From an uncultured Clostridia bacterium (GTDB lineage: Bacteria; Acidobacteriota; Aminicenantia; UBA2199), in the NCBI GenBank assembly GCA_964465065.1, contig CAYXHZ010000006.1, positions 1,185 through 65,184 of the forward strand: a stretch of 64,000 nucleotides of DNA. The letters are read 5' to 3'. This document shows, piece after piece, positions 57,885 to 64,000 of this stretch. Both the position numbers and the translations under genes were made by a program. Position 1 is the first letter of the stretch. Every line of letters starts with the position of its first letter. The notes beneath the pieces are model-generated. The model saw nothing but the letters and a program-made list of their open reading frames with translations, ran no database searches and was not told where the DNA came from.

Positions 57885-60290
57885 ATGGTCGGCAAAAGCA
57901 CCTGTTTCTTTTTTCCCGCCGTCATTCTGCTCATTATTCTGCCTCTGGCCCCGCTGCGGCTGAACTGGCCGGTCATTGGCCCGCCAATGCTGTTTCTGGT
58001 TATTTCCTACCGTCTTTGCCGTCGTCTCACCCTGCGACGACTCCTGCTCGTCTGCCTGTTCCTGCTGACCTTGCTGGTCATCCGCAATCAACGCTTCACC
58101 AGACTGCAGCTGGCCCAGTCCCTGAATTTTCCCGTTCAGGAATACCTGGACCTGCACGGTACCGTGGCCAGCCAGATTCAGCCCCTGCCCGAGAAGGGAT
58201 TCAGTTTCATGCTGCGCAGCCATAGCATTCAATACCGCAGACGGAAACACGCGCTTGCCCTCAACTTCCAGGTCCGACTGCGACAGGGGCCCTTACCCGA
58301 AGGATTTGCCCGGGGTGCGGAAGTCGCGATCGCCGCGGCATTGTCTCCGCCCCGGGAGCGGTACAATTTCCATATGGCAAACGGTACGGCGCGGCTCCTG
58401 GCCAGCGGTACCGATTGGCTGGCTTCCTGCAAAAGCGCCCACATGATCGAGGTCGTCTCGCCGGCCCCGTCTCACTGGCGTCTGCTGCAAACCTGGCGGG
58501 AGGCCATGGACCGCGCCGTCGACCGCCTGCCGGTACCGGCAAGAAACGACACCTTGACCAAACTGATCATGAAATCGTCTTTTCTGGGTTACCCCTACAC
58601 CGGCGAACCCGATATATACCATGGCTTCATGGTCAGCGGCGGGCTGCACCTGTTGGCCATATCGGGTTCCCACATCGCCCTGATCACCGCATTCACGCTG
58701 TTCCTTTTTTCATGGCTGCCGCCCAACCTGCGCCGTTGGCTCTGCGCCGTCGTAATCCTGCTCTACCTGCTTCAGGCGGCGGCTCCCGTTTCCGCTCAGC
58801 GATCGGCCATCGTCGCCTGGGCCTGGCTCTGGGCCTCGCATCGGCAACGCAAGATGCACTTCACCCATATCCTGGGGCTGTCGGGTTGCCTGGACCTTGC
58901 GTGCAATCCGCTCATCGTTTTTTCGGCCGGCTTTTTCCTGACCTATGCCATCTGTTTCGCGCTGGCCTACTGGGCGGACTGGCTGGGCCTCAGCCCGCAA
59001 GCCCAGCCGCGCCCGCTGCGAACCCGCATCGCGACACTGCTGAAAACCCAGGGCTTGGCGATCCTGACCTCCACGCCGCTGACCCTGCATTTTTTCAACA
59101 ACGCCACCCTGAACGCTCTCCCGGCCGGCATGCTGATGATTCCCCTGTTCAGCCTTCTGCTTCCGGTGGCGGCAGCCTGCCTGCTGCTGTTCATGTTCAT
59201 TCCGGCCAGCGCCGGCGTCAGCCTCTTCCTGCTCAACCCACTGGTCAGCCTGCTGCAGACGACACTGGCCTTCTTTTCCCATTGGGACTGCCTGCTTTTT
59301 TACCGTCAGGCGCCGTCTATCGGCCTGATTCTGGTTTACCTGGCCTTGCTTTTGGGCTGCGGCCCCCTCCTGGGCAGAAAACAGCCCATCCGCATCGGCC
59401 TGCTGCCTCTGCTGGCAGTTATTGTGTTCCTGCTCCTGCCGGACCGACCCTACCGCCCCAGCCGGACCGAACTCCACACCCCGGATATCGGCCAGGGGGA
59501 GATACACGCCCTGATCTTTCCATCCGGAAAAAGCATGCTCATCGATTGTGGGGGAAGCCCGTTTTCCGATCAGCGCTCCGCAACCCAGCTGGTCAGTTCT
59601 TATCTGCTCAACAACCGGATTCATCCACAATGGATCGCCGTATCCCACTTCCACTCCGACCATTGCGGCACGCTACCCGAACTGATTCGCATATTTGCTC
59701 CCCGGCAGATCCTGCACTCCGAATGCCCGCAGGACAACCCGCTGTTCAACCAGTCCCGAAAAGCCAGCACGAAACGGACGCAGTGGCTCCCCGTCAAGAA
59801 AGGCGACAGCCTGACCATCGACGGCACCCGGCTGCACTGGCTCTACCCGGAACGAATCGCCCCCGCTGCGGCAGAGACGGAAAACGGACATTCCCAGGTC
59901 ATCCACGTCCAGACCCCGGATTTCACCATCCTCCTGTGCGGCGACATCGGCAGCCGCGAGGAATCCCGGCTGCTGGCCTCGGTGCCCGAAATCGACATTC
60001 TCAAAGTTCCCCATCACGGTTCGAAAGGTTCTTCATCCATGGATTTCCTGAAAACCGTCTCGCCCAAGTTGGCCCTCTTCCATTGCGACCGGCACAACCC
60101 GTTTCATTTCCCGCACCCGACCGTGCTGGACCGCTACCGGCAACTCGGCATCCCCTGCCGGTTCACCTGGCAGGGTGGTTTGATCATCAGCGGCATTCAC
60201 AGTCGAATCCGCCTGCGGTTGGCCTCGAAAACCCTGATCCCGGCGTTTGAACCACTTGTCCCAGACAGGGCCGCCATTCTTGATTTTTAA
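57885..60290 (+). CDS. comEC: ComEC/Rec2-family DNA internalization competence protein (DUF4131 + competence TM domain + C-terminal MBL fold)
   Basis: 801 aa, polytopic. The C-terminal MBL block is ..IAVSHFHSDHCG.., ..HHGSKGSS... Confidence 0.8.
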   Translation: MVGKSTCFFFPAVILLIILPLAPLRLNWPVIGPPMLFLVISYRLCRRLTLRRLLLVCLFLLTLLVIRNQRFTRLQLAQSLNFPVQEYLDLHGTVASQIQPLPEKGFSFMLRSHSIQYRRRKHALALNFQVRLRQGPLPEGFARGAEVAIAAALSPPRERYNFHMANGTARLLASGTDWLASCKSAHMIEVVSPAPSHWRLLQTWREAMDRAVDRLPVPARNDTLTKLIMKSSFLGYPYTGEPDIYHGFMVSGGLHLLAISGSHIALITAFTLFLFSWLPPNLRRWLCAVVILLYLLQAAAPVSAQRSAIVAWAWLWASHRQRKMHFTHILGLSGCLDLACNPLIVFSAGFFLTYAICFALAYWADWLGLSPQAQPRPLRTRIATLLKTQGLAILTSTPLTLHFFNNATLNALPAGMLMIPLFSLLLPVAAACLLLFMFIPASAGVSLFLLNPLVSLLQTTLAFFSHWDCLLFYRQAPSIGLILVYLALLLGCGPLLGRKQPIRIGLLPLLAVIVFLLLPDRPYRPSRTELHTPDIGQGEIHALIFPSGKSMLIDCGGSPFSDQRSATQLVSSYLLNNRIHPQWIAVSHFHSDHCGTLPELIRIFAPRQILHSECPQDNPLFNQSRKASTKRTQWLPVKKGDSLTIDGTRLHWLYPERIAPAAAETENGHSQVIHVQTPDFTILLCGDIGSREESRLLASVPEIDILKVPHHGSKGSSSMDFLKTVSPKLALFHCDRHNPFHFPHPTVLDRYRQLGIPCRFTWQGGLIISGIHSRIRLRLASKTLIPAFEPLVPDRAAILDF

Positions 60291-60314: not shown

Positions 60315-60686
60315 ATGGCAGGCAAGAATATTTTAATAATCGACGACGAGGACTATATACGCGACCTTCTGGTCGACATGCTGACACTTGAAGGGTTTTT
60401 CTGTAACTCGGCGGCTACAACCGACCAGGCTTTGCAGCTACTGGCGCAAGCCGAGAACGCCTACAGCCTGATTCTGCTGGACCGTCACCTGGAGAACCAC
60501 AGCAGTGACGCTTTTCTGACCTGGGCACGGGAACAGCCGGATCTCCCTCCTGTCGTGCTGTTGACCGGAGACCACGATATCGGCGCCGACGAAGCCCGGC
60601 AGCTGGGTGCCCGGGATATTTTCTACAAGCCGTTCCAGATCAACGGACTGCTGACGCGAATCAAAGAATTGTTGGAGCAATCATGA
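60315..60686 (+). CDS. Single-domain CheY-like response regulator (receiver only)
   Basis: NILIIDDEDYIRDLL (acidic pocket), ..LILLDRHL.. (phospho-acceptor Asp), ..LTGD.., ..KPF... 123 aa with no output domain. ATGA overlap with the next gene. Confidence 0.8.
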   Translation: MAGKNILIIDDEDYIRDLLVDMLTLEGFFCNSAATTDQALQLLAQAENAYSLILLDRHLENHSSDAFLTWAREQPDLPPVVLLTGDHDIGADEARQLGARDIFYKPFQINGLLTRIKELLEQS

Positions 60687-62449
60687 ATATGACCATGCGG
60701 ATTTTCACCTCCCTTCTCCTGCTGAGCGTTTTCATCCCGGCCGCAACCGAGATCATGCCGTTGTCCGAGATCCGACCCGGCATGAAAGGCATCGGCAAGA
60801 CTATTTTCAAGGGATCCGAAATCGAACAGTTCGATTTCGAGATTCTGGGCATCATGGAAAACAACATGGGCCCCGGTAAATCGCTGATCTGGGCAGAGCT
60901 GAAGAATCCCATTCTGGCCGAAACCGGGGTCATGCAGGGCATGAGCGGCAGCCCGCTGTACATCGACGGCAAAATCATCGGTGCCGTGGCCTACGGCATG
61001 CCGTTTGCCAAAAGGCCCATCGCCGGTATCACCCCCATCCAGGACATGTTGACCAGCTCAAGTTACAACACTCCGACCATCAGCATCGAAATTTCCAACA
61101 TTTCCGCCGACTTCGACAAACAAAGCCTGCAGAACCTGTCGGACCGGCTGATGCAGGCCCTGGCCAGCCGTCTTCCTGGTCTAGGCGACAATACCCTGAC
61201 CCCCATCGAGCTGATCCGCACCGGTAACCGGTCGCTGCAGCAGACAAACCAGTTCATTCCCCTGCAGGGCGGCGCTCAGATTCAATCCTCGCTGACACCC
61301 AAACCGACCCCCGGCGACAAATTCAGCCTGCACGAAGCCGACGCTGTAGCCATCCCGTTGATCAGCGGCGACATGGAGTACACGGTTTCCGGGACCGTCA
61401 CCTACGTCAAAGACAAAGATGTCTACATGTTCGGACACCCTTTCTACAACCTGGGCACCGTCAATTTCCCCATGCACAAGGCCGAAGTGATCACCTCGTT
61501 CCCCTCCTACAACAACTCCTTCAAGATGCACCGTACCGGCCAGATGGTCGGCACCGTCAAACAGGACCGGCTATCCTCGGTCTACGGAGTACTGGGGGAA
61601 AAACCGGTGCTCATGCCGATGAAGCTGTTCCTGCGCAACCGCAACAAGACCGTCAATCTGGAGATCATCAACCACCCGCTTTTCAACCCGGTCCTGACCG
61701 GCCTGGCCCTGCTCAACACCTTCAGTTCCGAATACCAGGATTTCGGCTACCAGTCCCTGCGCGTCAACGGCCGCATTTTCATTGAAGGGCAAAAAAACAT
61801 TGAAATATCGGATTTTTACAGCGGAACTACCGCCTACAACGAATTCTCGAACCTGATGATCATGGTACAGTACCTGCTGCTCAACAACCAGGAGATGCCG
61901 GCTAAAATCCAGAAAATAGACTTCGAATTCGAAGGTTTCGAGGCCCTGCGCCGCTCGGCAATCCGCGACGTCATCATCAACAAACACCAATTCGCCCCCG
62001 GTGAGATCATCAATCTGCAAATCACCCTGCAGAACGAACGCGGACCGCTGGTCAGCGAGCAGATCAGCATCGAGACGCCCAGGCTGCCCGACGGCAGCAC
62101 CTTTTTTCTGTTCGTTGGCGGCAAGGACGAAATGCTCAATTTCGATTCCAAGAACGTGAAGTCCGACTTCATGCCCGACAGCCTGCGGGCCATCACCCGG
62201 GCCATCAACAACCTGCGCAAGAACAACCGTATCTACGTCAAACTGGCCTCCCCGCAGAAAGGTCTGTTCGTCAACGGCTACGAATACTCGCAGGTGCCGG
62301 ATACCCTCGGTTCCGTTTTCAATTTCAACCCCCACGAACAAACCCCGCCAAACGATATCAAGATGTCGACATTGACAGAGTACCAGGTCGACATCCCCAA
62401 TGTCGTCAGCGGCTGGAAATCGTTCAAACTGACCATCAAAGAGAGGTAA
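60683..62449 (+). CDS. SpoIVB/S55-type serine-peptidase-like protein with an apparently permuted domain order plus a roughly 250-aa C-terminal extension
   Basis: [25 protein letters not shown] near residue 95 matches the SpoIVB Ser378 block [35 protein letters not shown] (approx. residue 190) resembles IKVIPGGQSIG at the start of the PDZ domain. [20 protein letters not shown] (approx. residue 250) resembles the His236 block [21 protein letters not shown]. In SpoIVB the His block precedes the Ser block. The comparison is from memory of the B. subtilis sequence. Confidence 0.45.
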   Translation: [588 protein letters not shown]

Positions 62450-62450
62450 C

Positions 62451-64000
62451 ATGCCTAGCATCCACCGTCTGTATACCCCCGTTCTGCTGGCCCTGCTCGC
62501 CATCCGCATCGGCGCAGTGGAAGTCAAGAAGATCACCGTAAACTCCTTCGATCTCTTCGAGAAGGGATCGTTCAGCTCGGCGCTTCTCGATCATCAGGGA
62601 CGCCTGAGAATCGGCCCGGGCTCTTCCCGGATAAACGGTCCGGCCAAAGAATTCTACCTCTGCTTTGACATCAGCGAACAGGGCGACATTCTGCTGGGCT
62701 GCGGCCACGGAGCCGAGGTCTTCAAGATCACCCCCCAAAGCGACAAGCCCGTTTCCATTTATAAAGGCGAGGAGCCGGACGTTCATGCTGTGCTGCAGCA
62801 TTCCAGTGGCGCCGTCATCGCCGCCACCGGGCCCAACGGCAAATTGATCAGCATCGACGCCAAGGGCAACAGCACCGTTCTGTTCGATCCCAAAGAACGC
62901 TTCATATGGGACATGGTCGAGGACCAGGACGGATCGCTCCTCGTTTCCGTCGGCGGCAACGGCGGCGTGTACCGGGTCAGCCTGTCGGGACAGGTCAGCA
63001 AACTCTTCGAGACCGAGGATCCGCACATCACCACCCTGCATCTGTCCCAGGACAAGATCCTGTACGCAGGCAGCGGCGAACGCGGCATCGTCTACATCAT
63101 CACCAAGAATAAAACCAAGGTCCTCTACGATTCGGTGTACAAGGAAATCCGCGGCATCACCTCCGACAACAAGGCCAATGTCTATTTCGCCGCCACCTAT
63201 TACGACGAAGAGGCCAACAAGCGCAGTGACAGCGATCCCAACCTGATCAAGACCACCGCCAAGGGCACCCCGGTCACCGGCTTGCGCAGCGTAGTCTACC
63301 AGCACCAGGCCAACGGCAACACCGAGGAAATATTCAGTCTGAAGAACGAAACCATTTTCGATATCGATTTCGACCTGAAGTCCCAGACCCTGCTGGTTGC
63401 CACCGGCAATTCCGGACGGGTATTCCAGGTCAAGCCGAACGGCGAATACGCCATCGTCTACGAGTCGGATGCCGCCCAGGTTTTCCGGGTCAGCACCAAA
63501 GGTCCGGGATCGACCATGATCACCAACAATTCGGCCGGCATCGTCCGCATCAACGATAACGACAGCAACAGCGGCAGCTATGTCTCCGACATCTTCGACC
63601 TCAGCATCCAGTCCAGTATCGGCAGACTGTACTGGCAGGATTACAAACCGGACGACGCACAGGTCGCCGTTTCGATCCGGGCCGGAAATTCCAGCAAACC
63701 CGACAACACCTGGACCGAATGGCTGCCCCCTTTCCTGGACAGCCGGGGTGCGGCCACCAACCTGTCCGCCTACCGCTTCGTTCAGTTCAAGGTCAATCTG
63801 AAGGCGGCCAGCAACGGCAAGGAACCCTTTCTGGAACAGTTGCACTTCTATTACTTGCAGAACAACCTATCCCCGCGCCTGAGCTCGGTGCAGGTTTTTT
63901 CCAGGGGCTCAAAAAAGGACGACCTGTCAGCCAAACCCGAAGAAAAAAACCCGGGCAACAATTCGATTGCCCCCAAAGACCTGGTCGTCACCTGGTCCTG
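62451..64000 (+). CDS. Partial CDS (runs off window end): exported beta-propeller-like repeat protein
   Basis: ATG at 62451, 1 nt after the previous stop. MPSIHRLYTPVLLALLAIRIGA (signal), then repeated ..DG.L..G..G.VY.. motifs. Open through position 63990 with GC3-rich codon use. Absent from the ORF track because no stop lies within the window; the minus-strand ORF 62436..63845 is its antisense artefact. Confidence 0.45.
   Translation, partial: MPSIHRLYTPVLLALLAIRIGAVEVKKITVNSFDLFEKGSFSSALLDHQGRLRIGPGSSRINGPAKEFYLCFDISEQGDILLGCGHGAEVFKITPQSDKPVSIYKGEEPDVHAVLQHSSGAVIAATGPNGKLISIDAKGNSTVLFDPKERFIWDMVEDQDGSLLVSVGGNGGVYRVSLSGQVSKLFETEDPHITTLHLSQDKILYAGSGERGIVYIITKNKTKVLYDSVYKEIRGITSDNKANVYFAATYYDEEANKRSDSDPNLIKTTAKGTPVTGLRSVVYQHQANGNTEEIFSLKNETIFDIDFDLKSQTLLVATGNSGRVFQVKPNGEYAIVYESDAAQVFRVSTKGPGSTMITNNSAGIVRINDNDSNSGSYVSDIFDLSIQSSIGRLYWQDYKPDDAQVAVSIRAGNSSKPDNTWTEWLPPFLDSRGAATNLSAYRFVQFKVNLKAASNGKEPFLEQLHFYYLQNNLSPRLSSVQVFSRGSKKDDLSAKPEEKNPGNNSIAPKDLVVTWS

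Follow-up and report, generated by a model that had tools for sequence, protein, structure and literature searches.

The protease gene and its domain organization

The window analysed here is a 64 000-nucleotide stretch (positions 1185 to 65 184 of contig CAYXHZ010000006.1, assembly GCA_964465065.1) from an uncultured bacterium that is catalogued as Clostridia and placed by GTDB in the Acidobacteriota, class Aminicenantia. The open reading frame (ORF) at 60683–62449 on the forward strand is a complete gene with an ATG start, a GGAG sequence 9 nucleotides 5' of this ATG and 588 codons followed by a stop. In the AlphaFold2 model the product contains two six-stranded Greek-key β-barrels, the fold of clan PA, which are joined by a variable linker and followed by a family-specific C-terminal region (Table 1). 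The accepted order of the catalytic residues in chymotrypsin-fold proteases is His-Asp-Ser. Here the Ser-bearing barrel comes first, with the His-bearing one about 125 residues further on, which turns the canonical His...Ser order around to Ser88...(Asp230) His252...Asp295. We interpret the protein as a barrel-swapped clan PA/S55 serine protease and give this reading a probability of roughly 0.78.

A first-pass annotation of the locus, made from the sequence alone, had proposed a circular permutation of the S55 peptidase domain on the basis of four motifs: a Ser block, a PDZ-start-like motif, a His block and a segment following the latter. All four are present, at residues 82–106, 192–201, 235–254 and 286–305, respectively. 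The permutation itself holds up, but its PDZ part has to be abandoned, as described below.

Table 1. Features of the protease gene and its neighbours (window coordinates, except for the last row).
Feature	Position	Strand	Basis or remark
Receiver-only response regulator, 123 amino acids	60315..60686	+	PF00072, E 1.8e-15; ATGA overlap with protease gene
Putative permuted S55-like serine protease, 588 amino acids	60683..62449	+	Complete ORF; 100% identical protein P0001; homologs
Probable Sec signal peptide, residues 1–21	60683..60745 (preceding 60746)	+	n-Region basic, core hydrophobic, likely cleavage site preceded by small residues
Barrel A, residues 22–127	60746..61063	+	Six strands and terminal helix 119–127
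GMSGSP nucleophile motif, residues 86–91 (Ser88, 60944–60946)	60938..60955	+	Aligned to 9lnf; conservation
Variable linker, residues 128–212	61064..61318	+	Helix 146–163, then disordered stretch
Barrel B, residues 213–306	61319..61600	+	Counterpart of N-terminal, His-bearing chymotrypsin-fold barrel
Asp230 (GD turn joining strands 1 and 2 of barrel B), conserved acidic alternative	61370..61372	+	Conservation
His252, proposed general base (His57/His236 equivalent)	61436..61438	+	Follows directly on strand 3 in barrel B
Asp295 in the QDR motif, candidate third member of the triad	61565..61567	+	Topological position of Asp102, flanked by strands 5 and 6 in barrel B
β-Hairpin, residues 307–332	61601..61678	+	Strands 310–317 and 322–329, after barrel B
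C-terminal ~255 residues, α/β and β-sandwich domains, family-specific	61679..62446	+	pLDDT mostly 80–93
Secreted β-propeller-like protein, at least 516 amino acids, runs past window end	62451..64000	+	Frame translation
Gene module at other loci	L001 7639–11781; L003 5639–9994; L005 2659–6947		Conserved, tightly packed neighbours

The Ser-bearing barrel is homologous to that of SpoIVB

Barrel A is the counterpart of the C-terminal, Ser-bearing barrel of chymotrypsin and of SpoIVB, the signalling protease of the sporulation σK checkpoint of Bacillus subtilis (MEROPS family S55, PF05580, PDB entry 9lnf). PF05580 matches residues 22–104 only, covering profile positions 110–192 of 210, which is the Ser half of the domain, with 43.7 bits and an E-value of 4.2e-11 against a curated cut-off of 25 bits. 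The NCBIfam SpoIVB equivalog model TIGR02860 matches residues 27–104 at profile positions 301–378 of 402. Its 41.6 bits fall far below the equivalog cut-off of 305.25 bits, and the protein is thus no SpoIVB equivalog. It enters PF05580 only through half a domain. The Ser barrel is 37% identical to SpoIVB over 67 profile columns and shares the motif GMSGSP..GK.IGAV. The match is clearly far beyond chance, and barrel A is homologous to the Ser barrel of SpoIVB. No Pfam match to trypsin or HtrA models is obtained for the Ser block even at E ≤ 10, in line with the S55-like character that had been ascribed to it.

The nucleophile had been sought in GMSGSP without a choice between its two serines. 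The motif indeed aligns with the segment around Ser378 of SpoIVB and, since Ser378 is the first serine of GMSGSP, the equivalent residue is Ser88 and not Ser90. Gly86, Ser88, Gly89, Ser90 and Pro91 are each found in 110 of the 110 full-length representatives (mean column identity 24%) from which all conservation counts given here were taken. The SpoIVB reference sequence is identical to chain A of 9lnf over residues 101–426, except where serines were engineered to alanine, and the SpoIVB motifs used in the original comparison are thus correct. In this PDB copy the motif appears as GMAGAP, so that both 378 and 380 are alanine, and the accompanying paper describes S378A only (PMC12502668).

A probable Sec signal peptide precedes barrel A, as judged from its composition. 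Residues 3–17 are modelled as an isolated helix with a low predicted local distance difference test score (pLDDT), and the N-termini of the aligned homologs are variable and hydrophobic in all cases. This signal-peptide-like segment is all that stands before the Ser barrel, both here and in every aligned homolog. The first histidine of the whole protein is residue 217, which bears out the earlier remark that the first 96 residues hold none. A mis-called start that conceals an upstream His barrel is ruled out because the DNA upstream is read in a different frame, where it encodes the receiver domain, and because a signal peptide stands at the start of every homolog.

The barrels are joined by a disordered linker and not by a PDZ domain

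Residues 128–212 form a linker rather than the PDZ-like segment originally envisaged between the two catalytic blocks. This region has no Pfam match, and no PDZ match is found at E ≤ 10. It carries many indels and ranges from 59 to 185 amino acids in length across the family, and pLDDT is below 50 for residues 134–141 and 165–212. It also lacks similarity to the SpoIVB profile (P = 0.61). The Pfam annotation of 120 homologs consists of PF05580 only, whereas SpoIVB proteins also list PF17820, PF00595 or PF13180. A small conserved motif is nevertheless embedded in the otherwise variable linker near residues 172–181 (about 61196–61225), with the consensus L-x-P-I-x-T-P-L-x-x-S-G-F and Gly181 conserved in at least 90% of the sequences. 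It might be a site of processing, or else the strand by which the chain passes from one barrel to the other.

A linker that is this long, variable and disordered forces no intramolecular pairing of the barrels. The protease could therefore be assembled in trans, with barrel A of one subunit pairing with barrel B of another in a domain-swapped dimer or oligomer, and oligomerization would then turn activity on. HtrA-family proteases are regulated by oligomerization, and HtrA-type proteins are among the structural matches. The monomer model, on the other hand, has folded domains and a predicted template-modelling score (pTM) of 0.71, and the sequence carries no specific sign of swapping. We consider assembly in trans quite unlikely.

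The His-bearing barrel and its relation to S55

His252 is present in all 110 representatives, and its column is the sole one in the protein with histidine in at least 50% of the sequences. Only 13 columns of the alignment are invariant, among them Gly86, Ser88, Gly89, Ser90, Pro91 and His252. Both the fold of barrel B and the position of His252 in it agree with a role as general base. The invariance of Ser88 and His252 together with the topology of the model suggests that they are retained as a catalytic pair.

The likeness of the His segment to SpoIVB was assessed by comparison with a 40-sequence SpoIVB profile. Only two matches of this segment on the profile were returned by hhalign, and they are collinear. 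The best-scoring block places residues 281–309 on SpoIVB 276–304 (P = 0.0056), which supports the proposal that the segment after the His block resembles the SpoIVB interval between His and Ser. The second, weak block places residues 232–252 on SpoIVB 214–236 (P = 0.046), and both hhalign and HMMER align His252 with His236. A relaxed maximum-accuracy (MAC) alignment and HMMER each join both blocks in one alignment. The top score of 22.4 exceeds those of all 150 column shuffles (mean 12.7, standard deviation 2.7, maximum 21.6), and the collinear scores of the two blocks sum to 39.7. Natural controls against the same profile, namely the linker and three overlapping segments of the C-terminal region, gave P-values of 0.06–0.6. 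The proposed His-block likeness thus beats all 150 shuffles and the natural segments, but it is weak and invisible to a single-sequence search.

Queried as a single sequence against Pfam and the sequences in the PDB, the His segment returned nothing related to S55 and only chance matches to lectins. A competing weak match places residues 239–272 on the start of the SpoIVB Ser barrel (P = 0.04–0.09), which may reflect an ancient likeness between the two barrels. The link of barrel B to S55 is weak at the level of sequence. One alternative reading is a pseudo-protease or scaffold, in which barrel A is an S55 relic and barrel B is an unrelated or MreC-like β-barrel. Such a protein would bind targets without cleaving them, and Ser88 and His252 would be kept for structural or binding reasons. 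We consider this unlikely. Another is an independent fusion, in which a Ser-barrel fragment was joined upstream of a His barrel taken from some other branch of clan PA (HtrA-like or V8-like, for instance), instead of descent from a permuted S55 ancestor. The reversed order would then stem from fusion and not from duplication followed by truncation. We regard a fusion of this kind as very unlikely.

Permutation by duplication could have left part of a second Ser barrel behind barrel B. The hairpin formed by residues 307–332 was considered as such a remnant and rejected, since it matches the beginning of the Ser barrel without significance (P of about 0.05–0.2). A duplicated barrel has thus left no significant trace that we could find.

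Proposed active site and candidate third catalytic residue

In the proposed arrangement the signal peptide is followed by the barrel that is normally C-terminal, with the GMSGSP motif supplying nucleophile and oxyanion hole. A largely disordered linker of about 60–185 residues would bridge to the barrel that is normally N-terminal, which brings in His252 and Asp295 (or Asp230). The barrels would pack as in ordinary chymotrypsin-fold enzymes, such that Ser88, His252 and an aspartate would meet at the interface and form the active site. The product would be a secreted or periplasmic serine endopeptidase, in which the C-terminal 255 or so residues probably replace the PDZ domain of SpoIVB as a substrate-binding or regulatory module. 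This C-terminal region is conserved throughout the family and has no Pfam match at E ≤ 10.

Asp295 is conserved in 108 of the 110 representatives and its position in the model makes it the candidate third member of the triad. In the weak profile alignment it falls on the invariant Asn290 of SpoIVB, so that an aspartate would occupy the Asp102-like site at which SpoIVB has an asparagine. Asp230 is conserved in 109 of the 110 and lies one or two residues from the conserved Asp213 of SpoIVB in the same weak alignment. The identity of the third residue in SpoIVB itself has been disputed since the 2025 structure, in which Asp363 is about 24 Å from His236 and was questioned as catalytic, with Thr393 being proposed instead (PMC12502668). 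The counterpart of Asp363 in our protein is the variable Lys74 and that of Thr393 is Ala103, which is alanine or serine in the family. The family thus offers an evolutionary comparator for SpoIVB, and the placements of Asp295 on Asn290 and of Asp230 near Asp213 (ORF residues 281–304, 61523–61594, versus SpoIVB 276–299) may bear on this dispute.

Comparison with known proteases

SpoIVB and the protein studied here have the two-barrel chymotrypsin-type fold in common (PMC12502668). SpoIVB is exported, as our protein probably is. In fold and apparent function our protein resembles the extracytoplasmic serine proteases of the SpoIVB/HtrA type. SpoIVB has the order His...Ser and a PDZ domain that precedes its protease domain, whereas our protein has the order Ser...His, contrary to canonical S55, and no PDZ domain. 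Unlike in SpoIVB, some 85 residues of disordered linker lie between the barrels, and barrel B is followed by about 280 residues (307–588) that are specific to the family. The periplasmic serine proteases HtrA, DegP, DegS and Rv3671c (MarP), which belong to S1C of clan PA in MEROPS, combine the canonical His-Asp-Ser order with PDZ domains, while our protein has other C-terminal domains and no match in sequence to the trypsin or HtrA models of Pfam.

A precedent for natural circular permutation within a protease superfamily comes from the permuted papain-like cysteine peptidases (the permuted NlpC/P60 group, PPPDE/C97, LRAT and LupA), in which the order of the catalytic residues is reversed and the three-dimensional active site is kept (PMC10318531). 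They differ from our protein in fold, clan and nucleophile, and in them the permutation shifts one helix, in some cases together with a strand, compared with the exchange of whole barrels here. A literature search of partial coverage, which is no proof of novelty, returned no report of such a permutation in S55 or clan PA. The sole mention of an 'S55 domain-containing' protein that it found is unrelated and comes from a pull-down experiment on a diderm Firmicute.

If our reading is correct, the chymotrypsin fold tolerates permutation of whole barrels, and protein engineers gain a naturally occurring template from which split or permuted proteases could be designed. It would also explain the partial S55 domain seen in thousands of proteins, which without this explanation might be set aside as inactive or truncated homologues.

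The family and its gene module

At least 1959 homologs are found at the level of 90% clusters. When clustered at 50% identity, the family counts 7322 representatives, and 2571 of these match with E ≤ 1e-30. Most of the top 150 representatives are full-length and all of these share the architecture of about 600 amino acids. The named homologs come from metagenome bins of Aminicenantes and Acidobacteriota and not from endospore formers.

The ATG of the protease gene overlaps the stop codon of the upstream receiver gene (ATGA), and the two genes are translationally coupled. Only 2 nucleotides separate the stop of the protease gene from the downstream gene, the product of which gives sub-threshold β-propeller matches in Pfam and no family above threshold. 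The order receiver, protease, propeller is kept at loci L001, L002 and L003, and the same three-gene set is present beside protease homologs of 48% and 45% identity. An equivalent of the downstream gene encoding about 670–720 amino acids adjoins the protease gene in L001–L005, and the protease/propeller pair is still found where protease identity falls to about 30%. The downstream protein is 40% identical over 508 amino acids (E = 2e-130) to the product of the gene downstream of homolog P0079, and judging by such sequence identity the downstream proteins of the compared loci are orthologous.

The protease gene is probably co-transcribed with those of the receiver-domain protein and the large secreted β-propeller protein, and this suggests a regulated extracytoplasmic proteolytic module, which is thereby flagged in abundant and poorly cultured sediment and soil phyla. 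In its widest form, our proposal is that of a natural clan PA circular permutant with whole barrels exchanged and a working Ser...His...Asp triad. It would represent a very large uncharacterised family (more than 7000 clusters at 50% identity), with the three-gene module perhaps being an unrecognised extracytoplasmic proteolytic signalling system of Acidobacteriota-like or Aminicenantes-like bacteria and Asp295 perhaps informing on the third residue of SpoIVB. We hold this full proposal to be slightly better than an even bet.

Other observations at the locus

Directly upstream of the module, at 57885–60290 (+), lies a gene for a ComEC-type competence protein (Competence, metallo-β-lactamase and DUF4131 domains). 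This neighbour is not kept at the homologous loci, where an LptD_N-like gene is found instead. Three further long ORFs, at 62436–63845 (−), 61571–62536 (−) and 58415–60250 (+), encode 469, 321 and 611 amino acids, respectively, and either lie antisense to the genes proper or use another frame. Their translations are of low complexity, rich in Gly/Asp/Val/Ala or Pro/Arg/Ala, which is what shadow ORFs, and not real genes, would be expected to show in DNA of about 58% GC content.
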